DNA of 64,000 nucleotides from Candidatus Bathyarchaeota archaeon (lineage in GTDB: Archaea > Thermoproteota > Bathyarchaeia > Bathyarchaeales > DTEX01): assembly GCA_963714275.1 (NCBI GenBank), contig CAVQNT010000005.1, positions 96,001-160,000 of the forward strand, written 5' to 3'. The notes under the pieces are model-generated. The model worked only from the letters and a program-made list of their open reading frames with translations, made no database searches and was not told where the DNA came from. This document shows, piece by piece, positions 3,089 to 49,323 of the stretch; position 1 is the first letter of the stretch, and the number at the start of each line of letters is the position of its first letter. The position numbers and the translations under genes were made by a program.

Positions 3089-3256
3089 ACGTAGTTCTTC
3101 AATTGTGTTACGCGAGATTTCAGCCAGATTCATGTGAATAAAGAATCACTTGAATAAAAGAGTTGCGACCACATCACAGCAAGCTCTTAATTACAGAAAC
3201 AGTAACTTTCGTGTTCCAGTTATGCTTATTATTGCCAATCCATATAGAAATTGTTA

Positions 3257-3723
3257 TGGTGAGTTCGAAAATAGTTGTTCTGATGGGTTCAAAAAGCGAC
3301 GTTTCATTCGCCCAAAGAGTCGAAGAGTTTTTGAAACAAGAGAACATGAATGTTGACTGCGAGTTTGTGGTGTCGTCAGCCCACAGAACCCCAGATATGC
3401 TGCTTCAAAAACTAAAGGAATATGAGAAATCCAGCGACAACATCGTCTTCATAACCATCGCAGGCTTATCAGACGCCCTATCAGGAGTCGTTGCAGGCTT
3501 TACAGCTCGACCCGTCATAGCGTGCCCGCCAGACATCGAAAAATATGGTCCTCTGAAAGCTTTTTCGTCTGTCATGATGCCCACTGGAGTTCCAGTTATG
3601 CTTGTTTCGAAACCTGAAAATGCTGCCTTGGCTGCTGCGAAGATTTTGGCAATCGGAAATCCATCTCTCAATCACGAAATTGTTAAGTATATCCAGAAAA
3701 AGAGAAGCGAGGTCGCAACATGA
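3257..3723 (+). CDS. purE: N5-CAIR mutase / AIR carboxylase
   Basis: MGSKSD, SAHRTP, AGLSDALSGVVAG, PVIACPP and MPTGVPV motifs. The start is probably the ATG at 3257 within ORF 3163..3723. Confidence 0.93.
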
Positions 3724-3755
3724 GCAAAAAAAGGAAGGAAAGCTGAGACTTAACA

Positions 3756-4622
3756 ATGAACACGAGAAATATCGTTTTAGAGTCCAATCTTGCTTATCCC
3801 TTGCTTAAAAGAGGTAAGGTACGAGACCTATATGACTTAGGCGACAAACTTCTAATTGTTTCCACGGACAGACTCTCAGCGTTCGACGTTGTTTTGCCTG
3901 ACGGAATACCGCACAAGGGCGAAGCATTGAACCTTCTCTCTGCATTCTGGTTCAAAAAAACCGAACGAATAGTGCCTAACCACCTTCTTGAGGTTGTCGA
4001 CTCGAGAACAGTTCTCGTAAAAAAGACTGAACCAGTGAAGGTTGAGTTTGTTGTCAGAGGTTACCTTTACGGCTCAGCGTGGGAAAAACACCGAAACGGA
4101 GAAGCCGTCTGCGGAGTCAAGCTTCCATCTGGCATGAAAAAAGCTCGAAAAGTTCCTGAACCAATTTTGACACCCACCACGAAGGCTGATGTTGGGCACG
4201 ACATCGAATTAACCCGAGAACAAGTTGACAAGTTTATTGGCAGAAAACTCGCTACCGAAATAGAGGAGTGCAGCCTAAACATTTACGAAGCTGCATCGAA
4301 GAAGGCTGAAGAAAAAGGCATAATCATTGCGGACACAAAATTCGAGTTCGGAGTGCTTAATGGCAGCCTTATTTTGATTGACGAGATTTTGACTCCTGAC
4401 TCATCACGTTTCTGGCCAAAAGACCAATATAAGATTGGTGTAGACCAGCCAAGCTTTGACAAACAAAACGTCAGAGACTACCTCACGTCAACAGGCTGGA
4501 ACAAGCAGCCACCTGCCCCGTACCTTCCAGAATCTGTCATCGCCGAAACGTCGCGTAGGTACATTGAAGCCTACGAAAAACTAACGGGACAAAAATTTAT
4601 CAATAAAATAAGAAAGAAATGA
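3756..4622 (+). CDS. purC: SAICAR synthetase
   Basis: GKVRDLY, DRLSAFD, EFVVRGYLYGS, DTKFEFG, DEILTPDSSRFW, FDKQNVRD. Confidence 0.96.
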   Translation: MNTRNIVLESNLAYPLLKRGKVRDLYDLGDKLLIVSTDRLSAFDVVLPDGIPHKGEALNLLSAFWFKKTERIVPNHLLEVVDSRTVLVKKTEPVKVEFVVRGYLYGSAWEKHRNGEAVCGVKLPSGMKKARKVPEPILTPTTKADVGHDIELTREQVDKFIGRKLATEIEECSLNIYEAASKKAEEKGIIIADTKFEFGVLNGSLILIDEILTPDSSRFWPKDQYKIGVDQPSFDKQNVRDYLTSTGWNKQPPAPYLPESVIAETSRRYIEAYEKLTGQKFINKIRKK

Positions 4623-5800: not shown

Positions 5801-6974
5801 TTACGTGACTATTCTGTCGAGAACCTTTTTTTCCGCAGCATATTTTATCTCAAGTAAAGGTAAATCCATAGGAGCTGCGATTCTTTCCAGTCCATGCTGC
5901 TTCATTAGCCACTGGTATTTTAACGACAGCCGTCTCATCTCAGGAGAGGTCGGACCCACGCATGGGCAGCCTGGAATTCTGGGACTGACATCAAAAACGT
6001 AAAAAGACAGCTTCCTCTGCTCGGGATCGTCGGCATCGTAAGCTATGGCTCCCTGTAAGGCAAAAAGCCCTATTATTCCAGGCTGGAACTCTTTTTTGCA
6101 GATTCTCCTAAATTTTTCCGCTGCGTCGTATACAAGTGGCTTCTGGGACTCCCTCATTGTCAAACCGTAATGACCGATTTCCTCGTTCTTTATGGTCACG
6201 TTTATTCCAAGCTGGTCTCTGGCTGGCAAACCGAGGACACCGTGGAGGTTGGTCTGTTTTCTGTCGTCGAAGCCTAAAAGGTCGAAGTCGCTGAAAACGT
6301 CGGGCAACGCCCACCCCTGAAAATTGGCGTTGAACTTTTGTCCCAAAACGTATTCTTCTATTCTGGCTTTCTTTAAGGCGTCTCCATCGATTACTTCGTC
6401 TTTTATGAGGCTGTTAGCCTTTTCATAATAATCCTTCGAATTGGAAGCATAAAAGAACGCTCTCTCCATAGGCTTCTTTTTCTGCTGCACTTTAACTATC
6501 GCGAGCCTGTCAATGTCTTCGGGCTTGTCAAATTTTTTGGGCGTCTTGATTCCCGCCTGCTCTAGCAACCAATACTGGTTGCGTTCCTCGTTTCTTTCTT
6601 CAGCTCTGAGAATCATCCTGTTTCCGTACAAGGGAACCTTAAATCGGCTTTCGATATTCTCGTAACCCACATACACAGAAAACGATCTGTTCGGGATGAA
6701 AATCGTGTTGTAATCCCTTAGCTTGGTTTGGACTTCAGAGTTAACTATGTCCGTGAACCGATCCAGAAGAATCACGTGGTCAAACAGGTGCTTATTGTAT
6801 TTGGCATATAGTTCCTCTCTGCCCTTCTGGCAAACAACAACAGTCGACAAACCGATGGACTTAGACTGAAACACCGACCTCCTCCGCCGAGTGTGACCCT
6901 AAAACTCCTACGGTAATTGTTTTGTTGTTGTATGATGATGTTAGTTCTTGCATTTCCTCTCTTTTTATAACCAT
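5801..6974 (-). CDS. purP: PurP-family ATP-grasp enzyme (second paralog); frameshift near 6870
   Basis: N-terminus MVIKREEMQ...TVGVLGSHSA read from 6974, plus IFIPNRSF, GIIGLFALQ and DVSPRIPG. Whether it is a FAICAR or FGAR synthetase cannot be decided from the sequence. Confidence 0.85.
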
Positions 6975-7024
6975 ATTTTATACCTTCAAAACGTGTTTAG
7001 ATACTGTTATGACAGGAAACAACG

Positions 7025-8110
7025 TCAATAAACCACCTTCTCCAACTGGTTCATCTCAGCTGCTTTCCTAATTTCCGCCGCTATTCTTCTTCCCATGTAC
7101 ATTCCTTCGCCATATTTCAGGTATGCGTAGGGGGAGGTACCGATGCCGACGTTGCTGCCTGCGACAATCCGAGCTGAAATCTCGAAAGTGTAAATTTTCA
7201 TCGTGTCCGTGATGATTGTTTCGAGACAGAACGGACCAATTACGCCTGGAGGCGCGATCTCCTTTGCCACTTTTGCAACATTGTCTCCCATTGTCAAAAC
7301 TTCAGGCAGCAGCGACTCTCTTAGTGTTAAGGGAATGTTGCCGACAATCGTGTAGGTTGGATTTATTTCGAGCTGGAGCTGCTCGTTTGCAGGTATTCTG
7401 CCTATTGTATCAACCGTGGACTCGTAACGTTTGTCCATTCCAAGAAGCTCAATATCGTCCTCAAGCGCTGAACCAAAGTACTGAAAATACACGTTTACGC
7501 CAAGCACGTACTGTTGAAGATGCATGTCCTTAAGGTCTTCTCTGTTCAAATGTCCCTTTTTTATCATTTCCTCAGACTTTCTTCTAAACGATTCTGGAGA
7601 ATCAGCTAAGAAATAGCCCCTTCCTCCTCTTGCGCCTGGAAACTTGGCAATCACTAACCGATCTATCTCGTCTGGATTGCTGTAAATTTTAGGTAAGGTT
7701 AAACCTGCCTTTTGAAGCCAGCTTCTCTGCATGTCGCGGTCGATTTCCCAGCGTAGAAGCCTTCTATTGCCCAACATTGGTACGTATAAATTGTTCAGAA
7801 GCGCCTCCATACTCACGTACGCATTGAAAGAGCCGTGTGGAATCAGAATCGTATTAAGCCTTCTCAGCTTTTCCTGAACTTTGTCATCAAGGAGTTCGCT
7901 GAAATTATCAACGTAAACCATCTCATCCACTAATGGAAATTTCCTGTAGACAATCTCACGGTCTTTAGTAAGAATGCAGACTGTCCTGAAGCCTTCTTCT
8001 TTGGCGCCTTTAAAAATGTTAAGAGCTGAATGTGAACCAAGTGTTCCTATTGATAATTTGTGTTTGTCGTATTTTTTTACGATGGCGTTCATGTCTTCCT
8101 TTTCTATCAT
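7025..8110 (-). CDS. purP: FAICAR synthetase (formate-dependent)
   Basis: TLGSHSAL, IPHGSF, GARGGRGYF, GPFCLE, FEISARIVAG, MGRRIA. Confidence 0.93.
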   Translation of the reverse strand: MIEKEDMNAIVKKYDKHKLSIGTLGSHSALNIFKGAKEEGFRTVCILTKDREIVYRKFPLVDEMVYVDNFSELLDDKVQEKLRRLNTILIPHGSFNAYVSMEALLNNLYVPMLGNRRLLRWEIDRDMQRSWLQKAGLTLPKIYSNPDEIDRLVIAKFPGARGGRGYFLADSPESFRRKSEEMIKKGHLNREDLKDMHLQQYVLGVNVYFQYFGSALEDDIELLGMDKRYESTVDTIGRIPANEQLQLEINPTYTIVGNIPLTLRESLLPEVLTMGDNVAKVAKEIAPPGVIGPFCLETIITDTMKIYTFEISARIVAGSNVGIGTSPYAYLKYGEGMYMGRRIAAEIRKAAEMNQLEKVVY

Positions 8111-9587: not shown

Positions 9588-9764
9588 CTTTACATTCAGA
9601 TATTATGCAACACCTAATTTTAAATTTACATATAATAGTTTATAGAATTTTATGACCGTTAACTGCACATTAATAGCTTATTTGAAACAGCAATATTATT
9701 TTTATGTTGTGATTTTACAGGTTTTTCGTTTGACAAAATATGAAAAAATTTTTTTATGCTATTT

Positions 9765-10983
9765 TCATATTTCATGGCTACCATATTGCGAGGATGCAAA
9801 TCTTCTAAGCCTTTGCAACGACGTCATTCTTTCCTTGTCTCCCAGCCTTGCATTCTCGACGGCTTCTCTAAGAAACTGGATTGAGTTGTCCATGGCTTTC
9901 CTGTCAACTGGGAAGGGCACACCGTCTTTTCCGCCATAAGCAAAGGAATATTTTACGGGGTCTTTCCAGCTCGGTTTCTCGCCATAGACAAGTTCAGAAA
10001 TCAAGGATAATCCGCGAATTGTTGAGGGTCCTAAGCCTTTTACGCTTAAAAGTTCCTCATAATTCGTTGGCTTAAACTCGTATGCTCTTTGCATGGCTTT
10101 CCAATTGATCGTTGCTGGCATAGTCAAGTAGTCAGCGATGAGAGCTTTGACTTTATTTTGATCCAAAGGCATCCATTCCTGAAGTGTTCGCTGATAAGCT
10201 GGATGAACCGACTGAAGTAGCCTCGCGATTGCTTTAGGACTTTCTTTTACCAAATCTACCGAGACCTTTCGGCATCCTTCGCTCTCTTTAGTCTGTCATG
10301 TCTAAGGCTGCTGCTCGCTTTACGTCCCCAACGATCGCTGCGTGAGGTTTTTCGACAAAGTTATCGTATTCTCCGAGAGCCAATGATACCTGCGAGCAGT
10401 CCTATCGGCAACGCTCATTCCTTGCTGAACCACAGCCCATTTCCCGTCTTGCGAAAAAAGAAAGGCATGGTGATAAAGTGGATACCCCGCTTGAATCGCA
10501 ACATTATCCACCTTCGCGCTTATTCGGCTTGCATACTTCAACCGATCCGTATCTTCAGTTGATAATCCTGAATTCGGTGCCAGCTGAACCTATCTCGAAC
10601 TGGGCTTTGTTTGAAGCTTTACCTTTTCCTCCGCAAACTGCCAAGCCAAATTCTCTTGGAGTTATTGCTGATTTGAGAACGCCAGTCAGAACCGTTGTTA
10701 CGCCTGAGGAGTGCCAGTCATAGCCTAAGACGCAGCCTAAGGCTTGAAACCAGTTTGGATCAGAGATTCTGCGTAAAAAAACCTCGTTACCATACTCGTC
10801 AAGAATGATTGCCACAATCTGCCTTGCCAGACGGATCATTCTACCGACTAACCATTGAGGCGCCTTGCCTCCATGAAGGGGAAGCTCCGCATATCCCGTT
10901 CTTTTTACCAATTTTACTACAGTCATCTCTAATTGATTCAAAATGACATATTGTTGTGAGAATCCTTTAAACCTAATTGCCAA
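9765..10983 (-). CDS. DUF763-family protein; two frameshifts
   Basis: LPLHGGKAP.WL, FQALGCVLGYDWHSSGVTT, AKVDNVAIQ.GY.LYHH, ARRYHW, GLGPSTIR and DP..YSFAYGGKDGVPFPV across three consecutive ORFs. Confidence 0.85.
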
Positions 10984-12543: not shown

Positions 12544-13394
12544 ATGTCTCGTGAAGACCGTGTTCAATTAGTCGCAGGCATCGATGTTGGAGCAAGCACC
12601 ACTAAGGGCGTCATACTGGGAAAATCGGGAATAATACATCAATGTTTCATTGAAACCTTGAATGACAAGTCTTCAACTTTGCGAATTTTAAAAAAACTTC
12701 TTTCGAGGGTCGATGATGTTTCTTCAATAAAAAAAGTTGCTGTCTCAGGTGGCGATTCGCGGATAATTGTAAAAGAGTTCTTTGGGATACCAGTCCAGAA
12801 GGTAGATGAGATAGCAGCAACTGGCATAGGAGGTCTTTTCCTGTCAGGTAAGAATCAAGCATTAATCGTCAGCGTGGGAACTGGAACAGGTGATAATCAG
12901 CTGCCCGTAACAGTGGAAAAAGGATTAACCATGTTGGCGGCACAGGCGTTGGTGGAGGAACGGTTATGGGGTTGGCGAGAAGAATACTCGGTGTCAACGA
13001 CTTTCAGGATTTAGAAACTTTGGCATTAAAAGGCAACCTAAACCATGTTGATCTGACTGTGGGAGACATTGTGGGGGGACCTGTTGGGATTGTACCTGCT
13101 GAAGCGACCGCGTCAAACCTCGCTAGACTTGACGACGAAACTTTTCCGGAGGATGTGGCTGCTGGTATCTTTAACTTGGTTTCTCAGGTTGTGGGCGTTG
13201 TCTCAGTTATGGCTGCAAAATCCTGTAACCTCGAAGAAGACGTGGTTTTTGTGGGGAGATTAGTAAAAAGCCCATTAGTGTCAAACATCATCCATGAAAC
13301 TGTCAGAGTCTTCGGCGTGAAAGCCTTTGTGCCAGAAAATGGTGAGTATTGCATGGCTGTGGGGGCTGCATCGTACATTCTCAGGAATTATTGA
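12544..13394 (+). CDS. Type II pantothenate kinase-like (CoaW/Fumble, ASKHA); frameshift near 12900
   Basis: GIDVGASTTK, VDEIAATGIGG, VSVGTGT, HVGGTGVGGGT (shifted frame), KGNLNHVDLTVGDI, ASNL. Confidence 0.8.
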
Positions 13395-13498: not shown

Positions 13499-14044
13499 TT
13501 GATTTCTGATTCGATTCTTGATAAGAAGGTTCAGATTCTCCTTAAACTTAGAGGTTACAAGCTTCTCGGCGAAGAAGAAGTGAAAGAAGGCAAAGTTTTC
13601 ACGGTTGAAGGTCGTAAAAAGAAAAAACTAATCGTGTGGGCGATAACCAACGTTGAAACCATAGGCATCCGCTACATAACCCAACTGTCGAAACGGATTG
13701 AAACCCAAAGCCTCGATGGCGGAGTAATAATCTCTAACGGTAGGTTTACATACTCAGCCAAGGCGAACTCGAGAAAGAAAAGAGTCGAGCTTATCCCGCC
13801 CAACTTTCCTTCATTCAACATATTTGACCACTATCTTGTGCCAACACACGAGATACTTACTTTAGAGGAAAAAGAGGCGGTTCTTAAAAAATACCGGGTG
13901 CATCCTTACCAGCTTCCTCTGCTGAGAACTTCAGACCCAATTTCCAAGGTTATTGGCGCCAGACCAGGAGACTTAGTTAAGATAACTAGGGAAAGTCAAA
14001 CAGCCGGTGAACATGTCTCGTACCGATACGTCGTTGAAGGCTGA
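13499..14044 (+). CDS. rpo5: DNA-directed RNA polymerase subunit Rpo5 (H) with ~100-aa N-terminal extension
   Basis: C-terminal FNIFDHYLVPTHEIL...QLP...SDP...GARPGDLVKITRES.TAG...YRYVV is the Rpo5/RPB5-C signature. Confidence 0.93.
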   Translation: MISDSILDKKVQILLKLRGYKLLGEEEVKEGKVFTVEGRKKKKLIVWAITNVETIGIRYITQLSKRIETQSLDGGVIISNGRFTYSAKANSRKKRVELIPPNFPSFNIFDHYLVPTHEILTLEEKEAVLKKYRVHPYQLPLLRTSDPISKVIGARPGDLVKITRESQTAGEHVSYRYVVEG

Positions 14045-15293: not shown

Positions 15294-15430
15294 TTATTGC
15301 TGAAGACCATTAATCTCGAATCTTCAATAATTCAGAATACTGCTCTTAGGTTCCACTAAAAGTTAATTTTTCTGTCAGTATCTTGGATGTTTAAATACAG
15401 GCATGATATATAGAGAAATTAAAGTTTGAA

Positions 15431-15914
15431 CTAGTTTTTCAAGTATGTTCGGTAGTTCACGAGTTTTATGCTTTTTCGCGTAACTATTTCTTTAGTTTTT
15501 GGACTTAACAAACATTTTAATTCTGCTAGTCTATGATTTCCTACTCCTTCAGGCATCACGTGAGACGGTTCCGTATGCATAAGAGCTTGAGATTCAAGTG
15601 AGTCTACCAAGAGATGGTTAACTAACAACCAAAGTCCCGGAGTTAATTCATCAAGTTGCTTAGTGAGATTTGATTCCTTTTCTGAAGGATGAATAGTATA
15701 TACACCCGCAACAATCTTCTAGTCTGAATGACCTGAAATTGGCAGCTTATATTCCGCTGAAAGTTCCTTCACTACCTTAAGGAATTCTTTCTCTCTGCCA
15801 GATTCTTCGCTATCGCCTATGTAGTGTGTGTCAAGATAACATGGATTTACGCCCCATTTCATTAGAAGCTCAATTTGGGCTTTAATCTCATTTTTCACTT
15901 CAATGTAGTCAGGA
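15431..15914 (-). pseudogene. 3' half of YdjC/ChbG-family deacetylase, cut off by the integrated element; in-frame TAG at 15719-15721
   Basis: Manual translation: PDYIEVKNEIKAQIELLMKWGVNPCYLDTHYIG...SD*KIVAG...LTPGLWLLVNH...RLAELKCLLSP. This is the typical YdjC C-terminal half. Confidence 0.88.
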
Positions 15915-15932
15915 CAACAGAATAGTTAACTT
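15908..15932. repeat. Left attachment site (core GTCAGGA + arm CAACAGAATAGTTAACTT)
   Basis: The arm is an imperfect inverted copy of the right arm (reverse complement CAACTAATTAGTCAACTT). Confidence 0.85.
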
Positions 15933-15961
15933 TATATATTAATCAGTAGTATTCTTTCAGT

Positions 15962-17162
15962 ATGGCAAAATTAGAGTATCTTAAACAATATGGCAGCGTC
16001 CAAACCGTTAATGCATACAAAAGCGGTTTGAAAGATTTTTTCCAAGCAATCTATAACGAACGAAACGGGCTTGAAGGATTAGCTGAAAGATACCTTAATG
16101 ACAAGCGGAATTATGAAGAAGACATTCAGACCTTTTTAATAGCGATCAAGGACTACGCACCTAAAACCGTAAAACTTAGACTTACTGCAGTTCGTATGTT
16201 TCTTTTAGAGAATGGAATAGAGATGTCTCAACAGTTCTGGAGAAGGATAAGAGGAAGAGTAAGAGGAACGAGAGGCTCTAACGCTTGACAAGGTCCCGAG
16301 CAATGAAGAATTAAGGAAAATCATGACACACTTACCAGTTCAAGGAAAGGCTCTGTTTCTGACAATGTGCAGTTCAGGAATGAGGATCGGTGAAGCTCTT
16401 AGTCTTGTGCCTGAAAACATAGAGTTCGGAGATCCTACACGTATTAACATTCAAGCGTCGTTTACGAAGACCAAAAACTCGAGGATAGCGTTTATTTCAA
16501 AAGAAGCCAGCGAAGCCGTCGAGGAATGGCTCAAGGTCAGAAAAGACTATTTGGGTTCAGCCGTCGCAAGAAGCCGATTTGGAAAGTCTATTGATGATCC
16601 TAGGATTTTTCCATTCACAAGTTTTAATGCAAGGTATATTTGGAATATTGCCTTAAAGAAGACTGGAAACGGGAAAAAGGACACTCAGACAAACTATCAT
16701 CTTGTGCATCCTCACGTATTGCGAAAGTTCTTTCGGACTCGGATGGCTACAATTATTCCCGTCGACGTAACCGAAGCTTTGATGGGTCATGAAGGTTATT
16801 TGACTGAGGTTTACCGTAGATACACGCCTGAGGACTTAGCCAAGTTCTACAAGCAAGGAGAACTATCTATTTCAATATTCGGCGGCGTAGTGGATCTACA
16901 ACAGATTCAAAAACAAGTTGATGAAAAAGTAGATGATAAAATAGGAGCTTTGCAGAAAGTCATAGACCGTTATGCTACTGAAAATTTGGAGTCTAAAAGC
17001 CGTCTCTCTAGTATAGAGCTTGAAATCACACAATTATCAGAGATTTTCAAAGAATTTAAGAAGAAAGCTCTAAAAATTTTTCAACTGTCATATTTTCCTG
17101 TTTCAAAATTAAGACTTTCCGACCCAAAAAGACCATTGTTTTATCTTATCGCATTAAGATAA
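15962..17162 (+). CDS. Tyrosine recombinase/integrase (SAM-like N domain, catalytic domain, C-terminal coiled coil); frameshift near 16280
   Basis: TVNAY...YAPKTV N-domain; SSGMRIGEAL, TKTK, HPHVLRKFFRT, LMGH, YRRY catalytic residues. Confidence 0.93.
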
Positions 17163-17530
17163 ACTCAGGGGTCCGACCAAAAAACACCATATTTAATGTT
17201 ATATATGATAATATTAAATGGCTCATTGTTTTATCCTTCGCAATAAATCAGTTATAATTATCTAAACTAAGGATAAAGGCTGAAACAGCTATAATTCACT
17301 CAACTAAGAATATAATAAAAGTCATCATGAAGAATATAATTAAACAGCTATACTTTTGAGGCGAAAAGGCTAGGGTAAACACCTCAGATATGCCACTACA
17401 ATTTTTTAAACTGTTTCCATAAACTTATATACATCGTTAAGTTAGATCAGGGCATTGGTCATTAGGTTGTGCGTTTATGGTATGACGATAAAATCGCAAG
17501 ATAAACGTCATTCAAACCATAGGACAACAC

Positions 17531-17752
17531 TTGAAAAATTCTGAAAAAACGACTGAATCAGTAAAGATTCTCGACCACGATTTTGAATTTCCGTCTTGTA
17601 TTGGCAGAAAGACCGCTGAACCGCTGAGTACATGCAAAGGCTGCGAGGTTGCAAGCCTTTGTGAATGGCTGAAAATCAAGTTTGTTTCCCGAGAACCTGT
17701 AATCCAGTTCACGGAAAAATTTGAAAAAATTTTAGGAGCAATAAAAATTTGA
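17531..17752 (+). CDS. Small Cys-rich hypothetical protein (element cargo)
   Basis: C-x10-CKGC-x5-C pattern; co-oriented with the downstream cargo. Confidence 0.55.
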   Translation: MKNSEKTTESVKILDHDFEFPSCIGRKTAEPLSTCKGCEVASLCEWLKIKFVSREPVIQFTEKFEKILGAIKI

Positions 17753-17813
17753 CGAAGGTTTCAAGGCAACGACTGAAACGGAAAACACCAAGCACTGATA
17801 GAAGGAAAAGGTA

Positions 17814-17987
17814 ATGACTTTCAAGTTTTTCTTTTATGCTCCGTCAAGTAGAATCTTGTTCAAAATTTGCGACGTATGTAAAAAACCATTCGTAAATGGT
17901 GATTTATGCGTTTCAAGGCTTGGCGGATCTTCAATTCATGTTATCGGTCATTACTGTCAAGGTTGCTATGAAAAATTGTTCAGGTGA
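17814..17987 (+). CDS. 57-aa Zn-finger protein (not in ORF track)
   Basis: MTFKFFFYAPSSRILFKICDVCKKPFVNGDLCVSRLGGSSIHVIGHYCQGCYEKLFR; same Cys/His pattern as the next ORF. Confidence 0.75.
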   Translation: MTFKFFFYAPSSRILFKICDVCKKPFVNGDLCVSRLGGSSIHVIGHYCQGCYEKLFR

Positions 17988-17991
17988 CTGA

Positions 17992-18204
17992 ATGGTTTTT
18001 AGAACGTATGTTTTTCAGTCTTGGGCTCGGTTTTCAGGCTTGAGATGTGACGTTTGCGGTCACCGATTTGTAGAAAATGACATCGTAGTTACTAAGACTC
18101 AAGGTGCAAAAGAAAGGAAAAAATGGGAAAGAAAAAACGTCTTAACCCATTATTGTGGCAAATGTTATAATAATTTGTATTTTCAAGGGGAGGTGATTGA
18201 ATGA
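17992..18204 (+). CDS. 70-aa Zn-finger protein
   Basis: CDVC..F...D.V...HYCGKCY; GGTGA SD-like sequence upstream; tightly packed. Confidence 0.75.
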   Translation: MVFRTYVFQSWARFSGLRCDVCGHRFVENDIVVTKTQGAKERKKWERKNVLTHYCGKCYNNLYFQGEVIE

Positions 18205-18885
18205 AAAGAAGAACACCAATAAGACATCATGTTTCAAGCCATGTTCGGGATGGACATCATATCCACGATTATATGAGAGGTCGAGGGAACCGAGGAAATT
18301 CGTATGTTCGAAGGACTAGGATCCAAGAAGGGATTTACTGCAAAACTGATAAGTCTATAAAAACGAAACATTGCGGGAAATGCAGCGATAAGCTGAGAGG
18401 ATTATTCAACATCTCATGAGCCAAGAGCTTACCACGTGACCTTTGGATACTTAGACGGTTCTAATGAAGTCGTCGAAATAATTGCAAGGTCGCCAAAGGA
18501 GGCTTTACACGGTGCTGATAATAAGAGAAAACGAAAGGATCAGAGAGCTGTCTCAGTGGTCGTAACGAATTCTATCGGTGAAATCGTCGGAAAACTGGCT
18601 CGAGGAATCGGTTCAGGCGTCAAAAAGGTTGCTAAGGGAGCTATGATTTTAGGAAAACAAGCCTATTGGAAAGGTAAAGAGTTTGCTTATGAACATGAGC
18701 TCGGTGAAAAATTAAAGAATGTCGGTCGTTCTGCTGCTGTTGCACTAGCAAAACACCAAAAAAACGTTAAGGCTGAACAGCTCATAAGAAAAGCGTTCAG
18801 TTCTGACCGTGTCGAATCAGTTAAAGCAAGAGTCGAACTTAAACAAAAATATCCAGAAATCTACTTGGCGGCTCGTTTCAGGTGA
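18201..18885 (+). CDS. Basic hypothetical protein(s): His/Arg-rich 72-aa ORF and 149-aa ORF, possibly one frameshifted gene
   Basis: GGAGGTGA SD before 18201; RHHVSSHVRDGHHIHDYMRG. The frame of 18436..18885 stays open upstream (EPRAYHVTFG). Confidence 0.6.
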
Positions 18886-18933
18886 TAATATTGACTAAAA
18901 AGACCGATTTCAAGGGTTATAGAAGGTGACTTA

Positions 18934-19083
18934 ATGGACGTTTTAAATAACCTTGTTCAGTATCTCATGATTCACCCTTGGCATTGTGTTTTAGCTGTTG
19001 CGATTGCTGGCTCTGTAATTTTGTATTTTTTGTATGACTGGCTCGGAAATCAGTCCTCGAGACCTCGGAAAAGTGGATGGTGA
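18934..19083 (+). CDS. 49-aa single-pass membrane protein (not in ORF track)
   Basis: MDVLNNLVQYLMIHPWHCVLAVAIAGSVILYFLYDWLGNQSSRPRKSGW; AAGGTGA SD upstream. Confidence 0.6.
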   Translation: MDVLNNLVQYLMIHPWHCVLAVAIAGSVILYFLYDWLGNQSSRPRKSGW

Positions 19084-19562
19084 AGACTTAGGCATTTGTA
19101 GAGGAAAAGCTCGACCTTTCAATGTAAAAGATGCCCATTGTATGAGCTAACTGTCTATTTAATAAAAAATTAGTAAAAATCGGCGATGGTGACGCTGACG
19201 CTGCGTTACGATATCAACGATGGACCCCTTAGAACCTTGTTTTAGTAAACCATTTAATAAACTGAAAGCCATGATTCAATATAATTAGTAATCTTAAGTC
19301 TAAGATATCGAATTCGAAGACCTCTTCGATGCAGTAATGCCCATTCCCTAGGGGAAAATAATTCTTTTTTAAGGTTCTTTTAATGGTCTCATACAAAATT
19401 ATATATATCACACTAAATAGTCATTTAGTGTGAAACGTTTGGTTTTCAGCGGAAATTACTAAAAAGTCTGTTTTCCGTTTAGAGGAAGAAGACATAAACC
19501 GAAAAAAAAATAAATGTGTGTGCTAAAACCCGACTTTAAAAATTTGGAAGTGTCGAAACAAT

Positions 19563-19802
19563 TTGAAGACTATAGCCCAAATAGTTAGTGAGAGTGGACA
19601 CAGTTACTATTTGGTTTTGAACGAAGTGTTAAGGCATAATGAAGAAGTTAAGAGCCTTGGTTACTGTTCACGCTGTAGAAAGGCGAAGAGTGAGGCTGAG
19701 ACGGTATTAATTCCGACTGGTTCACGCAGAGATTTGGAACACGCTGCAATGATGGAATATGCAATGGCTCAAGCCAAGGCTCAAGGTAAAAAAGAGGTCT
19801 AA
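19563..19802 (+). CDS. Small putative DNA-binding protein (HTH-like + CxxC)
   Basis: KTIAQIVSESGHSYYLVLNEV HTH-like helix pair, then YCSRC; directly upstream of the second recombinase. Confidence 0.55.
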   Translation: MKTIAQIVSESGHSYYLVLNEVLRHNEEVKSLGYCSRCRKAKSEAETVLIPTGSRRDLEHAAMMEYAMAQAKAQGKKEV

Positions 19803-19807
19803 AAACA

Positions 19808-20522
19808 ATGTTAAAGAAATCTAGATATCGAAATAAGAGAGAAGAAACTCTTTCAGCGGTTGAATTTGAAGGATTTTATGAGAATGCCAAGAAGCTTGAA
19901 GAACTTAGAGAAATTAATAGAAAAACGGCTGCAGGTCCAGCCGCATTGAGAATTAAACCAATTTCTGTTTGTGGTCTTCTCAGCATTCTTTTCTATACTG
20001 GATTAAGGATAACTGAGATTTGTGGTGATCCCATTCACATTTACAAAGTTAAAGTATGGGATAATACCACAAGTCCAAAAACTTGGACTGGTGAATATGA
20101 AGAAAAGAAGTCTGAAGAGATCCACGGCATACTTAAAAAGAATGTTGAAATTGTAGGAGATAAGTGAAGAATTACCGCAAGAGAGGTTCGAAAACGTGGC
20201 AAAAGACTTTCACCTCTTTTTATTCCGATTGACCGTTTAGGTGTTCAAAGTATAATTGAAGCTTGGAAGCTGGCAAAGGGTCCAGAAGATAGAATTTTTC
20301 CAATATGCCGCTGGACTGGCTGGTTTTTAATCTCAAATGTTACGAACGGGCGATTATATCCTCATTATTTTCGCCTCAATAGAGACTTCAAAATTCGCAG
20401 AAAATAAGAAGACTACATTAATAGAATTATTAGCTTGGTTCGGCTGGAAACAACCTGAAACCGCAAGTCACTATTTAATTGCTGCGGGACGAACGACCGA
20501 AAATATGGCTGACCGATTATAA
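19808..20522 (+). CDS. Compact (catalytic-domain-only) tyrosine recombinase; two frameshifts
   Basis: LFYTGLRITEI, then in shifted frames KRGKR...LYPHYFRLNR and WFGWKQPETASHYL (R, K, HxxR, W, Y set). Confidence 0.85.
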
Positions 20523-20568
20523 TTATGACAGTGGAATGATAGCTGGCTACGGCTGAGAGATTATAAAT

Positions 20569-20592
20569 AAGTTGACTAATTAGTTGTCAGGA
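20569..20592. repeat. Right attachment site (arm AAGTTGACTAATTAGTTG + core TCAGGA)
   Basis: Mirror of the left site; the core is duplicated. Confidence 0.85.
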
Positions 20593-20915
20593 TTACTGTC
20601 AAAGAATTCCCGTGGAGACCTATGAAAAAAGCCATCATCATCCGTGATGCTTGATAAGTGGTCATATGGAAGCACTGGCCTCCATGGGTATCCTCTCCAT
20701 TCTCCAATGACTGCCAGATGGACGCCTAAGCACCAAGATGGATTAACCTTCGCCATTTCAGCTGCTTCACGAGCCCAAGGAGTAGGTGCCAATATGGCAG
20801 CGCAGGTTAGAATACCTTCTTTAAAGGCTTTGGACACAGCCAAGTTGCATGAATGCAGACTGCCCATGCCGTCGCCACGGACAATAAGCTTAATGCCTTT
20901 ATCTGAGGATCGCAT
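20580..20915 (-). pseudogene. 5' half of YdjC/ChbG-family deacetylase, truncated by the element
   Basis: LIVRGDGMG...N.AV, G.LT.A, LGVHL...GEW...WRP. Ends at NPD|N* exactly at the att core. Confidence 0.9.
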
Positions 20916-20994
20916 AGTATCGCCTGCTGTGAATATTATTGACTATGTTTTTTCAAAATTTTTTGTTAGTTGTTAGTAACCCATCGTAAAATGA

Positions 20995-23556: not shown

Positions 23557-24526
23557 CTAATCACCTTTAGGTTTGAAGTACGGTATCACCTTTTCGGCGT
23601 AAAGTCGAAGGGTTTCATGGTTCGTCGGAACAATTTTTACAATAATATGTTCAGCTCCTGCCTTCACGTATTCCTCAATTCTGCTTATCCATTCATCGGG
23701 GTCTCCGACTAAACAGATTTCCTCAATGTCTTTAAGGGTTAAGTTAGGTCTCACTGCACGTCTTCTTTCTGGCAGGATTTGTTCTTCAGCTGTTTTCCGC
23801 GCCTTTTCAGAGTCTGAAGATATGCTGGCATAGGCGTAGTATCCTGCTTCGATCTGTTCGCTTTTTTTGCCAATTTTTCTTGCATGCTTCCGTATAATGC
23901 TTAGCTTTTGACGGTATTCTTCCACGGTTGGGTTAGGTATGACCCAGCCGTCTCCCAGTTCAGCTGTTAACTTCAGCATGCGTGGACCTGAGCTTCCGAT
24001 CCAAATGGGCGGATGAGGTTTCTGAAGGGGTTTAGGTAAACAGGTGCCGTCTTTGATCTTGTAGAATTTTCCATCGTAATTGACTGAGGGCTTCTCCCAC
24101 AGCATCCTAACTATCTCTACAGCCTCGTGCATCACGCTTGTTTTTCTTTCGAAGGGGAACCCGAAGGCTTCGAATTCTTTTTTGTACCATCCAGCTCCCG
24201 ACTCCCAGGATGAAGCGACCGCCCGATATTATGTCCAATGTGGCTCCTGCTTTGGCGATAAGCGCGGGGTGACGGAATGGAGCGCAGACAACCTTTGTTC
24301 CAATCGTCAATTTTTTGGTTCTCGCAGCTACAGCGGATAATGAGGCAAACACTTCCAGCGAACCTTTGTTCGGAACGGTGTACATGAGGTGGTCTGACAT
24401 CCAAACGGAGTCGAGGCCAAGTTTTTCTGCGAGTTGAGCTGTCTCAACAATCTCGTTAAACGTACTGTATTCCCAAGGCCAAATCGTCAAATCCAACCCG
24501 AACTTTACCATACGTTGTTTCACCAA
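23557..24526 (-). CDS. LLM-class (probably F420-dependent) oxidoreductase; frameshift near 24195
   Basis: DSVWMSDH, RHPALIAK..ATLD.ISGGR..LG.G, PKPLQKPHPPIWIG, A...DGW. Confidence 0.88.
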
Positions 24527-40337: not shown

Positions 40338-40414
<77 letters not shown>

Positions 40415-40610
40415 CTAGAATTATTATAAAAAATGATGTTTTAGTCAGCTAGCTTTTAGACAGTTTGTAGGTAGTTCGAGGAGTATCTTGAGAAGACATC
40501 AACGTCTTTTTATCAATTTTCTATGACTGTTTGGTTGCCTAAATAATTGTTATATATGCAACATTTGATAGCTAGAATCAACTCCTTGACTAAAAATTAA
40601 AATTACTTGG

Positions 40611-41912
40611 TTGTGCCTGTGCATGACTAAACTAAGCAAATATTTGGAAGTATCTGAGGAATACCATATACCTAAAACTATGCAGGCAGTTGTTCTCTCA
40701 GGTGTTGGCGAAGAGAATCTGAGATTGTCAACCGTGGAAGTGCCAGACTGCAACGATGACCAACTTCTAGTAAGGGTAGACGCAGCTATGGCATGTGCTT
40801 CAGATAATAAGCTCATAGATCAAGGCTCGTCTCACCCTTTATTGTATGGTTGGGATGTCTCAAAGTATCCCAGAATAATTGGTCACGAAGGCGCTGTCAC
40901 GATCGTTAAAGTGGGAAAAAACCTTAAAAACAAATATTCAGCTGGTCAGAGGTTTGCTATTCAACCCGCAGTCCCAAGAGGACCCAGCCATTACAGGGAT
41001 AGATACAGGGACAACGCCAAAGGAATCAGTAAGGTGGCTGTGGGCTATACTCTGCCGGGACTGTTCGCTGAATATGTTCAAATCACGGAAGAGACAATTG
41101 GGGCTGGCTGCCTACTTAAACTTCAAAACATCAATATTCCATATTTTGCGGCAGCCTTAGCTGAGCCAATTTCGTGCGTTATAGCTGCACAAGAAAAGAT
41201 TGTTCATTTTAATACAAGTGAATTGGCTAATCAGCAGCGGATCGAGTTAGGACCAAGGAAGGGAGGTATTACGTTCATCATGGGCGATGGACCTATGGGT
41301 CTCATGAACGCTGAGATCGCTATGGCGCATCATCCTAAAACCATCATTGTGTCGGGGCATCATCAAAAAAGAATCGAATCAATACATAAAGCCCTTGGCA
41401 ACAGGGCAGACAAACAAGGAATCAAACTTTTCTGCATTCTTTCGGAACAAATTGGTAATACATTATTGGAAACGACGGGGGGAGTCGGAGCAGACGACGT
41501 GATTGTTGCAGTCGGTGACCCATCTGCTCATGAAGCTGCTCTTGGATATTTAGCTCCGAAGGGCGTTGTCCACTTTTTTGGCGGAATCCACTCAAATGAT
41601 AGGATGGTCAAAATTGACACTCACAGAATTCACTACGATGGAATCTCAATAGTGGGCTCGAGTGGAAGTGAACCCTTGCATGTCGCAGCTACGCTTCGAA
41701 TGATGAGTGAAGCTCTCATTGACCCCGGCAATTACGTAGTCAAATGTGGAGGATTGGACGCAGCGATTCCCCTCATACATGCCATAAGACAACGGCGGAT
41801 TAATGGAAAAGGCGTAATATACCCACACACTCGAAGCCAGCTGTTAGATGTCGAAGGCTGGAGTTTAAACAAGGAAAAAGCTTTCCTTAAAGAACATCTC
41901 GTTGACTGCTAA
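40611..41912 (+). CDS. Zn-dependent MDR dehydrogenase, sorbose-1-phosphate-reductase-like
   Basis: CASD, GHEG, AEPISC, G.GPMG, HYDG.S.VGSSG. Lacks the structural 4-Cys lobe. Confidence 0.8.
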   Translation: MCLCMTKLSKYLEVSEEYHIPKTMQAVVLSGVGEENLRLSTVEVPDCNDDQLLVRVDAAMACASDNKLIDQGSSHPLLYGWDVSKYPRIIGHEGAVTIVKVGKNLKNKYSAGQRFAIQPAVPRGPSHYRDRYRDNAKGISKVAVGYTLPGLFAEYVQITEETIGAGCLLKLQNINIPYFAAALAEPISCVIAAQEKIVHFNTSELANQQRIELGPRKGGITFIMGDGPMGLMNAEIAMAHHPKTIIVSGHHQKRIESIHKALGNRADKQGIKLFCILSEQIGNTLLETTGGVGADDVIVAVGDPSAHEAALGYLAPKGVVHFFGGIHSNDRMVKIDTHRIHYDGISIVGSSGSEPLHVAATLRMMSEALIDPGNYVVKCGGLDAAIPLIHAIRQRRINGKGVIYPHTRSQLLDVEGWSLNKEKAFLKEHLVDC

Positions 41913-41937
41913 AATCCTGTTATGGCAAGGTTCCAAT

Positions 41938-43156
41938 ATGAAAAAAATCGTTGTTTTTGGCGCAGGAAATATTGGACGGTCTTTAGTGGGTCAGCTCTTT
42001 TCAAAAGCAGGTTACGAGGTTGTCTTTGTCGATGTGGATGATGAAATCGTCCATGCGTTGAACAAGCAGAAAGCATACAGAATCGAGGTAAAGGATAAAC
42101 ATCCAGAGATAATATGCGTTGAGAATGTCCGAGCGGTACACATCAAAAACTCAGCTAAAGTAATAAACGAAATAGTTTCCGCAGACATCATATCCACAAG
42201 CTGTCGGAGTCAATAACCTTCAAGGCGTCTACCCATACATATCCAGAGGACTAACAAAAAGAGCCAAACTTGGGAAAGGTCCTGTAGATATCATAATTTG
42301 CGAAAACATTAAGAACTCTCCATTAGTGTTCAGCGAAGGTTTGTCGAAGTGTCTGCCAAAGAAGTATCGTCTGGATTCCATAGCGGGACTTGTTGAGACA
42401 TGTATCGGAAAAATGGTTCCCATAATAAGTGAAATGGATAGAAGAAAAGACCCCTTGTTGGTTTATGCAGAAGCTTACAACACGATAATTCTTGACGCAA
42501 AAGCCTTCAAGTGTGGCGTTCCGAAGGTTGACGGGATTGAACCGAAAAAGAACATAACTGCATACGTAGACCGCAAACTCTTCATTCACAACATGGGTCA
42601 CGCTGCAACTGCCTACTTGGGATATTTGACTAATCCCGATATGAAATTCATCTGGGAAGCCATCAGCAACAAGCAGATTCATGAGTCCGTGAAAGAAGCC
42701 ATGTGCGAGTCTGGTGAAGCCTTGATACTCGAGTATGCTGACGAGTTTAACAATGAAAACATACGGGAATATATAAAAAATTTGTTCGAACGTTTCAATA
42801 ACAGGTCTCTGGGAGACACAATATTTCGTGTGGGAAGAGATATCCCGCGTAAACTATCTCGAAACGATAGGTTAATAGGGGCATTACTTCTTGCCGTGAA
42901 ACACTCGGTCCCTGCACCTTTCACTATGTTAATAATTCCTGCTGCAATGCTCTTCAGAGGAAAAGATGACGAAGGGAATCTTGATCTGCGGGACAAAACG
43001 TTTGTTAACGAAGTTTTCCCGCTTGGAATCGATTATATTCTTAGGGCAATCTGCGGACTTGACAACGATGAAGAAGCATCATTAATTAGTAACATAAAGA
43101 AAGCTTATGAGAAAATAACTATTGATCCAAAAAACTGGTTCAATGCAGTTGCTTAG
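41938..43156 (+). CDS. mtlD: Mannitol-1-phosphate 5-dehydrogenase-like; frameshift near 42200
   Basis: FGAGNIGR, ICEN, RKL..HNMGHA..AYLG, RF.N..L.D...RVGR...RKL...DRL. Confidence 0.82.
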
Positions 43157-43319: not shown

Positions 43320-44273
43320 ATGCGGAAAAAGATCAAGGTCTTCGTTTATTATGGGGATTTGTCGGAAGCTTTAGTTCAGCATATCCGTGATGTTTCTGAA
43401 AGAATCGAGGTTGCGGTTGTTAACGATGGCAAGTCTGCTTTAGAGGCTTTTATTGACGCCGAGGTTGTTTTTGGCAAATTCAATAAGGAGCTTTTTCAGC
43501 TGCGAAAAGGCTTAGGTGGGTGCAGACTAAGGGAGCAGGCGTGGATGTTCTATTATTTCCTGAATTCATCGAGTCTACCGTTGCCTTGACGAGTGCAAGT
43601 GGAATTCATGGAACACAGATTTCTGAAATGATCGTAGCGATGATGTTGGTTTTCACGAAACAGCTGCACAAGTTCATGCGTTACAAGTTTGAGGCGAAAT
43701 GGCAACCTCACACTCCTGACGAGCTGGCAGGTAAAACCTTAGGCATCATTGGGCTTGGAAGTATCGGCTCGGAAACAGCTGAAGAAGCTAAATGTTTAGG
43801 CATGAAAGTCATAGCCCTCAAAAAACATCCAGACAAAAAACCTGACTACGTGGATGAGCTCATAGATTCTGAAGGCTTTGACAGATTGTTGCGTCAATCC
43901 GATTTTATTGTTTTAACTTTGCCTTTAACTGGTGAGACACGCCACATGGTCAGTGAAGAACAGTTACGTTCGATGAAGCCAACTGCTTATGTGATCAACA
44001 TGGGCAGAGGAGCATTAATCGACACGAATGCTTTACTGAAGGCTTTGAGGGAAGGTTGGATTGCGGGCGCTGGATTGGACGTTTTCGAAAATGAGCCTCT
44101 CCCAACGGACTCGGATCTCTGGAAACTTGATAATGTCTTAATTACGCCGCATGTTGCTGGAGCATCTCCGTATTATGATGAAAGAGACTGTGGAAGTTTT
44201 CTGTGACAACCTGAAAAGGTACATTGAAGGTAAACCGTTAAGAAATGTGGTCGACAAGAAAGCGGGGTACTAG
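43320..44273 (+). CDS. D-2-hydroxyacid dehydrogenase; frameshifts
   Basis: GIIGLGSIG, PLTGET, IN.GRG, GAGLDVFENEPL, TPHVAG, C-terminal N.VDK..GY. Confidence 0.88.
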
Positions 44274-47830: not shown

Positions 47831-49323
47831 ATGATCGTCATCAAACAGACCCAGTCTCTCTGCCCCGAATGCCTGAAAGTTTTAGACGCCACAATATATG
47901 AAGAAGACGATAAAGTTTACATCAAAAAAGAATGCCCCGATCACGGCGCATTCAAAGAGGTTTACTGGTCCGACTATGGACAGTACGAGCGAGTTAAAGC
48001 CTTCGAATACATTGGCAACGGAATCGAGAATCCACGAACTGAAACAAAGACTTGGCTGCCCTTACGATTGTGGAATCTGCCCAAAACATAAATCGCAAAC
48101 AGTTCTCGCAATAATTGACGTCACAAACCGATGCAACTTAAGATGCCCGGTATGCTTCGCCACGGCTGGAACAACGGGCTATGTTTATGAGCCCACAAAA
48201 GAACAAATTGAAGCGATGCTTGTTAACCTTCGAAGCAACAAGCCTGTGCCTGTTGATGCGCTTCAGTTTTCAGGTGGAGAACCCACAATCCGTGAGGACT
48301 TGCCGGGAGCTCGTGAAGATGGCGAAAGAACTGGGCATAAAACACATCGAAGTCAACACTAATGGCATAAGGCTCGCGTCAAGCGTGGAATATTGCCACA
48401 GCCTCAAAGAAGCTGGGGTCAGCACGATTTACTTGCAGTTCGACGGCGTCACGCCCGAAGTTTTCAAGTTTACCCGAGGAGCCGACCTGTTCCAAACAAA
48501 AGTGAAAGCCATCGAGAACTGCAGACAAGCAGGATTACACAGCGTTGTTTTAGTTTGCACCTTAGTAAAGGGTGTCAACGACCATCAAATAGGCGACATC
48601 ATCAAGTTTGCCATTGCCAACTTCGACATCGTCAGATGCGTGAACTTCCAACCTGTCTCGCTTTGCGGTCGAATCCCAGAAGAACAAAGAAAGCAAATGC
48701 GGATAACAATCCCAGAATTCATGAACGAAGTCGAAAAACAGACAGACGAACAAATCAAGACCTCAGACTTCTATCCTGTTCCTACCGTTGTGCCTGTGTC
48801 TCGTGCAGTTGGCGCTTTAAAGAAGAAACGTTACGTTGAGTTCACTGCCCATCCGCACTGTGGCATGGCAACCTACGTTTTCGTTGAAGACGGGAAGATT
48901 GTGCCAATTACCGAATATGGTAACGTCGACAATTTCATCAAGACAATGGAAAAAGCCTATGAAGAATATGAGAAGGGTCACGAAACGAGGTTGAAAATGC
49001 AGCTTATGGGTTCAATGCGCCACATCAAATTTGACATGTTAAAAAAATACATTTGGCCACTGCTGAAGACAGGCAGCTACTCTGCCTTAGGCGACCTTCA
49101 CCGTAAGATGCTCATGATTTCGTCAATGCACTTCATGGACCCATATAACTTCGACCTTGAAAGGGTGCAACGGTGCTGCATCCACTACGCAGTTCCAGAC
49201 GGAAGAATAATCCCGTTCTGCACCATGAACTCCATTCACAGGCCAAAAATCGAGAAAGAACTGGGCATTCCAGTGGACAAGTGGAGACAAATCCACAAGA
49301 AAGAGGTCGAAGCCGTCGCTTAG
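47831..49323 (+). CDS. tes: Tetraether lipid synthase (Tes/GDGT-MAS, MJ0619 family) radical SAM; frameshifted
   Basis: TQSLCPEC...KECPDHG, CPYDCGICPKH, VTNRCNLRCPVCFA, HPHCG, CCIHY...DGRIIPFC. Confidence 0.85.

Follow-up and report, generated by a model that had tools for sequence, protein, structure and literature searches.

A 4.7-kb integrated element of a Bathyarchaeon carries two unlike tyrosine recombinases, the smaller from a largely unannotated family

Several genetic units encode or use more than one tyrosine recombinase, among them XerC/XerD, TnpA/TnpB of Tn554 and the recombinase-in-trio, and in these the genes are adjacent and the proteins alike in size and build. Element-encoded tyrosine recombinases may also act as something other than an integrase, as does Cre of P1, which serves multimer resolution at loxP. 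Mobile elements of the Bathyarchaeia are almost undescribed, and the survey of them that was found covers, in the part drawn on here, viruses only (PMC10541130). In Thaumarchaeota, small cryptic integrated elements (CIE) with an integrase, flanking repeats and mostly unknown genes are described in the corresponding part of another survey (Krupovic et al. 2019, PMC6563490). According to the same part, many CIE have no recognisable replication protein, the smallest is 2.6 kb, and their attachment (att) sites are short, down to 8 bp, with some CIE inserted in protein-coding genes (PMC6563490). Here we describe an element of one Bathyarchaeon (Candidatus Bathyarchaeota archaeon, assembly GCA_963714275.1) that lies in a 64,000-nucleotide stretch of contig CAVQNT010000005.1 (positions 96,001 to 160,000), hereafter the window, and that carries at its two ends the genes for two unlike tyrosine recombinases, termed Int1 and Int2. 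No description of such a pairing was found in the parts of PMC6563490 and PMC10541130 drawn on or in a literature search, at the level of titles and abstract openings, on two tyrosine recombinases in archaea, which returned nothing on archaeal mobile elements; supplementary tables may list multi-integrase elements.

The unit is a 4,678-bp insertion (positions 15908 to 20585 of the window, one repeat copy counted) in the middle of a YdjC-family gene (Table 1). A 7-bp direct repeat, GTCAGGA, bounds it and has only these two copies between 15000 and 21000, which sharpens the limits to 15908/15915 and 20585/20592 and corrects those of the original prediction (15962 to 20522). Removal of the DNA between the repeats together with one repeat copy rejoins the frame of the target gene, from ...EFFDSNPD to YIEVKNEIKAQ, and an empty-site counterpart is provided by G009, a genome of another genus in which the YdjC gene runs unbroken across the junction point. 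The direct repeat at both ends and the empty site in this relative thus mark an att-flanked integrated element and, as a single pair of junctions restores the frame, one element rather than loose remnants. Just inside the repeats lie two 17-nt arms that are complementary as inverted copies at 13 of 17 positions (fixed-position binomial p of ~1e-4) and that are the only two matches in the window to a degenerate arm pattern, which was built from these two arms. In the circular form the two arms would stand on either side of the 7-bp core, and two inverted arms around a 7- to 8-bp centre are the standard core-site layout of tyrosine recombinases. The element entered by site-specific recombination in the middle of the YdjC-family gene, with the crossover within the 7-bp core, and the target gene is dead; its C-terminal part also has an in-frame TAG that aligns with a Glu of the uninterrupted G009 copy.

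One full copy of the element is present in the 2.64-Mb genome, and a search of the whole genome for a free circular junction or a second arm pair gave no matches. The G+C content of the element is 37.9%, against 42.8% for the window, and its interior had no DNA match in the 40 other genomes searched. An Rfam scan of the element returned nothing below E 0.41, and no tRNA lies at its borders, the sole tRNA call in the window being at 40338. At the same locus, both the YdjC gene and the element are missing in five relatives, three from the genus (G002, G005 and G001) and two from the family (G012 and G017). What is absent there corresponds to window positions 15394 to 20981, and an MFS-transporter gene and DUF35/thiolase genes stand 6 to 176 nt apart. 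Because YdjC is absent from all five, the target gene itself looks like a recent arrival at this locus.

Int1, of ~400 aa and read in two frames, is made up of a SAM-like domain, a catalytic domain and a coiled-coil tail. The Pfam SAM_1 match is weak (18.2 bits, below the 22.3 cut-off), and the Phage_integrase match (PF00589) places the protein in the superfamily with 51.4 bits against a cut-off of 27.1 (E 1.4e-13), as does phrog_1, an integrase family (6e-23). The catalytic residues R...HxxR...H...Y are present (GMRIGE, HPHVLRKFFR, LMGHEGY and TEVY), in columns that are invariant in 12 of 12 homologues. The family is large, with 748 proteins at E<=1e-5, mostly of 350 to 400 aa, and those that are named are labelled integrase or Bathyarchaeia/Nitrososphaeria recombinase. 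By sequence the nearest solved relative is XerA of Pyrococcus, an archaeal chromosome-dimer resolvase (4a8e, E 8.7e-5); the NCBIfam XerA equivalog NF040815 gives 42 bits, far short of its cut-off of 220. Viral relatives are few: a single-protein search of IMG/VR found none, the Int1 profile matched only three distant loci there (29 to 36% identity), and a phage collection yielded two weak records, the better one from a Nitrosopumilaceae spindle-shaped virus (29.6% identity).

Three Int1 paralogs are present in the genome at 36 to 54% identity (40 to 49% over the longest segments, 36 to 43% at the N termini); the genes for two of these proteins, of 414 and 411 aa, are intact. The uninterrupted genes parA and parB stand at the borders of islands: sequence conserved in relatives of the genus begins again 46 nt before the start codon of parA and 74 nt before that of parB, and on the far side the DNA is specific to this genome over at least 8.4 and 9.5 kb, respectively. 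No Int2 or other gene of the element was found in any paralog neighbourhood. As Int1-type integrases border islands on their own, Int1 is read as the integrase of the insertion, and its start codon, 47 nt inside attL, would on grounds of geometry make it the enzyme that inserted the element. A split integrase of the SSV type was considered and rejected, since Int1 starts inside attL and Int2 stops 63 nt before attR.

Int2 has ~237 aa and comprises the catalytic domain only. As assembled, its gene contains an in-frame TGA (20165-20167), aligned with a conserved Leu, and a +1 frameshift between RLNR and TSKFA, near 20381-20384; the pieces have no Pfam match. Using a translation in which the TGA was read as X, 10 database homologues were identified (29 to 51% identity, 185 to 289 aa), with the motifs GLR(I/V)(T/S)E, RKHGK, PH(Y/F)FRLNR, WFxW and Y in common. 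What was previously noticed as a long insertion following the first Arg is an insert that varies within this alignment. All 8 aligned proteins of what is called below the mobile clade have R118, K167/K170, H224, R227, W251 and Y260 without exception. With PF00589, protein P0008 scored 36 bits, over the cut-off, P0013 and the L049 protein scored 24.7 and 20.5 bits, under it, and the L006 protein gave no match; NCBIfam names none of the Int2 proteins tested, and PHROGs returned nothing. The XerA profile NF040815 had no match to P0007, an Int2-clade protein identical to that of L006, and 27.9 bits to the chromosomal-clade protein of L011.

In an AlphaFold model of P0007, of moderate confidence (pLDDT 69), one helix (residues 68 to 90) precedes the catalytic domain and the N terminus is disordered; the N-terminal core-binding (SAM-like) domain is absent from every member of the Int2 clade. 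The best 20 structural matches to the model were all tyrosine recombinases or type IB topoisomerases (Z 7.7 to 5.2, 101 to 130 residues aligned), including XerH (7.7), XerA (7.2 and 7.0), variola topoisomerase (6.9) and Cre (6.8). SSV1 integrase ranked 28th, outside these 20, with a Z of 4.0. Foldseek alone found nothing below E 0.018, and its best rows were type IB topoisomerases (TM 0.27).

When 1.84 billion proteins were searched with a profile of eight close Int2 homologues, 435 cluster representatives matched at E<=1e-3, 72 of them at <=1e-10 and 17 at <=1e-30. In representative genomes all 24 loci matched by the profile were from Bathyarchaeia, and only L006 fell in the close clade. The other 23 mostly encode proteins of 186 to 217 aa (two truncated) with common host neighbours, including a MacB-type ABC transporter, UPF0047 and L35Ae, and the gene for the Holliday-junction resolvase Hjc is adjacent in five of the 23. 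A maximum-likelihood tree of 39 rows separated an 18-row mobile clade, including Int2 of the window, from a 21-row chromosomal clade with 99/98 support. The tree left out fragments shorter than 170 aa (L026, L027 and the ORF pieces of the window), the fragmentary L050, L053 and L054, and P0007, P0008, P0010 and P0012, P0008 being assumed to duplicate L044. Int2 is a member of a separate, largely unannotated recombinase family with a mobile and a chromosomal clade. The mobile clade is rare, with 2 of 401 genomes of the class, including the present one, carrying it, and no relatives of Int2 were found in IMG/VR. Members of the chromosomal sister clade are L007 to L029, and this genome has its own at C6:45670-45999. 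The closest homologue of Int2 (L053, 98-819; 55 to 82% identity by segment) also has a frameshift, which lies in a run of A. Just upstream of Int2, a near-invariant non-coding block of ~90 nt occurs in L049 (3130-3213), L051 (510-583) and L052 (525-618), and could be a regulatory or recombination site.

Mobile-clade Int2 genes occur together with a large integrase of another lineage in four of the six other informative loci (G310, L049, L045 and L047; Table 1), and a large integrase accompanies Int2 in both of the elements that could be delimited, that of the window and that of G310. The remaining nine close-clade contigs are no longer than 3.1 kb and are uninformative for pairing. In G310 the unit is delimited by a perfect 25-nt repeat, with copies at 9655-9679 and at 17909-17933, the second of which reaches into the 5' end of a tRNA-Thr gene, and the large integrase differs from the Int1 family. 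Each of these two delimited units has one recombinase gene at either end when integrated, so that circularisation would place the pair on both sides of attP, in the order Int2-attP-Int1 for the window element and integrase-attP-Int2 for G310. In L049, Int2 and the large integrase are on opposite strands, and no att repeat was found. The large integrases are mutually unrelated or distant, with 31% identity between those of L049 and L047, 24% between that of L045 and parB (E 1e-8), and nothing significant among the rest. In the tree, the Int2 proteins that accompany them are scattered through the mobile clade. Some of the larger relatives have replication genes, namely a DUF3987/primase in L045, a DnaA-like ATPase in L044 and, in G310, a 1183-aa ORF with a weak match to family-B polymerases (E 0.0037); the window element and the scanned L049 ORFs yielded no replication gene. 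Mobile-clade Int2 marks a group of small Bathyarchaeial elements in which it is repeatedly combined with interchangeable large integrases of at least three unrelated lineages. Since the pairing recurs at the level of the family, the doubt raised in the original prediction, that the two genes might never co-occur elsewhere, does not hold for the Int2 type and large integrases, and the idea of a division of labour survives; for the exact Int1 family co-occurrence was seen at none of 104 loci. The G310 element (L130, G310:C1:124304-132582) encodes Int2, an RHH protein, the 1183-aa ORF and a 438-aa integrase, the last having a zinc ribbon at its N terminus. Its 1183-aa protein and the 1191-aa protein of G307 are not alike.

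These observations lead us to lean, with a little more than even confidence, towards one small integrated element of a Bathyarchaeon in which Int1 integrates and Int2 carries out a second, element-specific reaction. Int1 would integrate and excise the element, and Int2 would act on the free element in a reaction other than integration, the likeliest candidate being resolution of multimers of the free circle and the alternative being aid in excision.

Several points weigh against this reading. No gene of the Int1 family lies beside Int2 at any of 24 genome loci and 80 metagenome loci found with the Int2 profile, so that the particular Int1 and Int2 pair of the window is unique so far. No large integrase was seen in L006/L042 or L044, where the contigs end at 3.4 to 3.9 kb and 4.7 kb, respectively, and in L045, L047 and L049 the element limits are undefined and membership of one element is assumed. 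The regions upstream of the Int1 paralogs do not share an arm motif, local alignments being no better than shuffles (p 0.49, 0.17 and 0.45), and the arms are therefore assigned to Int1 solely by geometry. No recombination site of Int2 was identified, its role is predicted from sequence and a model, and that model is of moderate confidence, with all structural Z scores below 8. Finally, both recombinase genes are interrupted in this copy.

Of the rival explanations, the one that survives best, though we think it unlikely, is that the two recombinases form an obligate pair on the same att site, each cutting one pair of strands or binding one arm. XerC/XerD and TnpA/TnpB of Tn554 provide precedents for this arrangement. 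It would suit the predicted position of the two genes on either side of attP in the circular forms of both the window element and G310; 4 of the 17 arm positions do not match, a difference that two distinct binding proteins could account for, and Int2, being devoid of a core-binding domain, might need a partner to hold the DNA. However, Int1-family integrases border islands without any Int2, the large partner comes from one or another unrelated lineage in different members of the Int2 clade, which is hard to fit with a co-evolved heteromer, and the L049 genes are on opposite strands.

A broader and distinctly doubtful proposal concerns the Int2 type as a whole. Int2-type proteins would here constitute an unrecognised, minimal class of recombinases devoid of the core-binding domain, with a housekeeping branch (syntenic and often next to Hjc) and a branch defining very small mobile elements with swappable integrases, in which Int2 maintains the free circle through resolution or initiation of replication. 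If so, a two-recombinase replicon with no replication protein (Rep) would be a new kind of archaeal mobile element. The replicative role taken by itself, with Int2 standing in for a replication protein and starting or finishing replication of a Rep-less circle by nicking and closing in the manner of a type IB topoisomerase, is less probable still, and we know of no precedent for an Int2-like recombinase in this function. It would explain the smallest elements, given that no recognisable Rep is encoded by the window element or the scanned L049 ORFs; the topoisomerase matches in Foldseek (weak) and the variola match agree with it, and the element has an AT-rich stretch with iteron-like repeats. 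Against it, HxxR...W...Y is an active-site pattern of the recombinase type, and the larger relatives L045, L044 and, weakly, G310 hold replication genes of their own alongside Int2.

A chance adjacency, in which decaying remnants of an Int1 element and an Int2 element are nested or in tandem, was raised in the original prediction and is likewise improbable. The absence of the exact pair from all 104 other loci, the three broken genes and the presence of zinc-ribbon ORFs directly after Int2 in L050 and L051, with no integrase between, would all be accommodated by it. It is opposed by the single pair of junctions restoring the host gene, by matching inverted arms at both ends with no further arm copy in the window, by the same end-to-end layout in G310 with its perfect 25-nt repeat, and by the common orientation of all ORFs. 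That the unit is a chimeric join or a mis-assembled region of an error-prone long-read assembly is barely credible, since, although split genes are common in the assembly, the base-exact junctions restore a frame that the independent genome G009 has uninterrupted, and the element genes have independent homologues in other samples.

As assembled, Int1, Int2 and a gene of what we call the 190-aa family are broken, by three +1 frameshifts and one TGA; frameshifts had been noticed earlier, and the third gene (18201-18885) is added here. The Int1 frameshift lies between 16263 and 16288, and each of the three shifts can be located directly behind a 0-frame AGA that has G as its next base (16271-16274, 18396-18399 and 20381-20384), two being pinned there by homologues. 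GAGAGG occurs four times in the element, twice within frameshift windows, a pattern not seen in the splits of host genes. Host genes split in the window are those for DUF763 (three pieces), Fumble, a luciferase-like protein, mannitol dehydrogenase, 2-hydroxyacid dehydrogenase, Pyr_redox_2, a radical-SAM protein and deoxyhypusine synthase, and the split positions recorded are 9765-10980, 12544-13394, 23557-24523, 41902-43153, 43320-44203, 47831-49320 and 56081-57527. The host shifts are both +1 and -1, and no sequence motif was seen to explain them. Since the essential rpoB is split as well (G000:C6:232669-233786), the assembly carries indel errors. The element has four breaks in 4.7 kb and the host DNA ~12 to 14 in 59 kb, so that breaks are modestly in excess in the element (Poisson p 0.016 to 0.026). 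Real decay and assembly error look the same in the assembly, and the element breaks may be either; this copy is probably inactive or decaying, with assembly errors contributing.

Table 1. Positions of the element, its target gene and its features in the window, and of recombinase genes at four related loci
Sequence	Feature	Position	Strand	Basis or remark
Window	YdjC-family target, C-terminal part	15431..15898	-	profile 100-146 (ORF 15719-15898); in-frame TAG near 15716
Window	attL core, left GTCAGGA	15908..15914	.	repeat search; excision of 15915-20591 rejoins YdjC
Window	inner arm C' AACAGAATAGTTAACTT	15916..15932	+	imperfect inverted repeat of right-end arm
Window	Int1, N-terminal SAM-like (core-binding) part, up to frameshift	15962..16288	+	PF02899 18.2 bits
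Window	Int1, catalytic domain and coiled-coil tail, +1 frame	16263..17162	+	PF00589, XerA 4a8e, phrog_1
Window	AT-rich non-coding stretch with iteron-like direct repeats	17163..17530	.	~31-35% G+C; 30-nt repeat x2, 14-nt unit x3
Window	ORF of 73 aa with Cys pairs	17531..17752	+	no family (Pfam, PHROGs)
Window	two paralogous small zinc-ribbon ORFs, 57 and 70 aa	17814..18204	+	30% mutual identity, E 1e-7
Window	190-aa family gene, split by +1 frameshift (18201-18419, 18397-18885)	18201..18885	+	one 189-aa gene in L006
Window	ORF of 49 aa, one hydrophobic helix	18934..19083	+	ORF list, Pfam scan
Window	ORF of 79 aa, one CxxC, 5-nt gap upstream of Int2	19563..19802	+	ORF list; no profile supports HTH
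Window	Int2, small tyrosine recombinase without core-binding domain	19808..20522	+	homologue alignment, structure matches, tree
Window	two 22-nt direct repeats, 82% alike, 44 nt apart	20504..20569	+	first overlaps Int2 stop, second abuts right arm
Window	inner arm C AACTAATTAGTCAACTT (minus-strand sequence)	20569..20585	-	imperfect inverted repeat of left-end arm
Window	YdjC-family target, N-terminal part	20580..20915	-	PF04794 8e-20, profile positions 1-89
Window	attR core, right GTCAGGA	20586..20592	.	repeat search
G310	Int2	9995-10669		opposite ends of 8,254-bp unit
G310	integrase, 438 aa	16570-17886		opposite ends of 8,254-bp unit
L049	Int2	3214-3927
L049	integrase with zinc ribbon, 417 aa	6097-7353		beside tRNA
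L045	Int2	5844-6530
L045	integrase, 440 aa	166-1488
L047	Int2	6488-7180
L047	integrase			cut by contig end

All sizeable ORFs between 15962 and 20522 are on the plus strand, and the claim of two tyrosine recombinase genes at the two ends of a co-oriented block is confirmed by the ORF list, Pfam and the homologue alignment. The absence of a recognisable replication, capsid or transfer gene likewise stands, as Pfam and PHROGs find none in the element; the nine ORFs and fragments scanned besides the two recombinases gave no Pfam or PHROG match, though small archaeal capsid proteins often escape such searches. The data weigh neither for nor against a minimal satellite or defective provirus, the alternative in the original prediction, and no viral hallmark was found. 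The AT-rich stretch after Int1 is a candidate origin or regulatory region. An 83% match to it lies at C7:103047-103128 (L126, 6048-6129), in the opposite orientation and next to a broken recombinase-like ORF. Small CxxC ORFs similar to the zinc-ribbon pair come after Int2 in L050 and L051, and the 70-aa ORF has a weak match in L101 and L121, ~1.8 kb upstream of their recombinase.

The 190-aa family comprises 40 database proteins of 120 to 288 aa, none named, including the query's own record (the 39 others have 42 to 80% identity). The sharing of genes other than the recombinases is patchy: this family co-occurs with Int2 in L006, and with a large integrase in G307, where Int2 is absent. Its predicted fold was uninformative, the best match (Z 6.2) covering 54 residues of a ribosomal protein; a search of ESM Atlas returned nothing usable, and no relatives were found in IMG/VR. 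The ORF upstream of Int2 that had been described as combining a helix-turn-helix (HTH) with CxxC does exist and has one CxxC, but its HTH has no profile support, and nothing was found to favour a small upstream ORF as a directionality factor. The two 22-nt direct repeats between Int2 and the right arm are candidate accessory binding sites.

In the wider genome, the Phage_integrase profile has 20 matches at ~17 loci. The genomes of relatives are of 1.1 to 2.2 Mb, and the larger size here together with the 20 matches suggests a heavy load of integrated elements. Elsewhere in the window, positions 13499-14044 encode an Rpb5/RpoH-like subunit with an N-terminal domain that has weak restriction-endonuclease-like matches (Mrr_cat, 2e-5), which we take to recall eukaryotic Rpb5, with its two domains, and not archaeal RpoH, which is short. 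The tRNA called by ARAGORN at 40338-40415 has an unassignable four-base anticodon (gcgg) and may be intron-bearing or atypical.

Both the recombinase family, which lacks annotation, and the recurring architecture are real; the function of Int2 is proposed from its sequence and a structural model, and the copy in the window is probably inactive. As a marker of 5- to 8-kb elements with swappable integrases, such a small recombinase would help to find and classify these elements and could indicate a second recombination step in their life cycle. A very small replicon, or integration parts, for the genetics of an uncultured and abundant sediment lineage could also result. The chromosomal sister clade near Hjc raises a separate question concerning the processing of DNA junctions in these archaea.

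Compared with known systems, the two recombinases share the catalytic fold and residues of XerA (4a8e and 5hxy; Z 7.0 to 7.2 to the Int2 model). Int1 differs from XerA in being ~120 aa longer, in its coiled-coil tail, in its position at island borders and in its score of 42 bits where 220 are required, and Int2 differs in having no equivalent of the N-terminal domain of XerA. Unlike systems with two or more adjacent and similar recombinases, the genes described here stand at opposite ends of the element and are unlike in build, and the large partner is interchangeable. The element is also single-copy, unlike an active transposon of the Tn554 type. With the SSV1-type integrase it has in common an archaeal element-borne tyrosine recombinase gene adjoining attP, but neither gene is split by integration, each having its own start and stop inside the element, and the catalytic domain of SSV1 integrase is a weak structural match to Int2 (Z 4.0). 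Cre (1kbu) is closer to Int2 in structure (Z 6.8) and in the non-integrase role that Int2 may have; it differs in possessing a full N-terminal DNA-binding domain and a known site. As a whole, the window element fits the operational class of CIE as presented in the part of the survey used here (PMC6563490), being small, with a short att site in a protein-coding gene and with no replication gene found. It differs from those CIE in that they insert in the 3'-distal part of genes, whereas this element cuts YdjC in mid-gene and does not restore it, and in its second, small recombinase, of which that part of the survey makes no mention.

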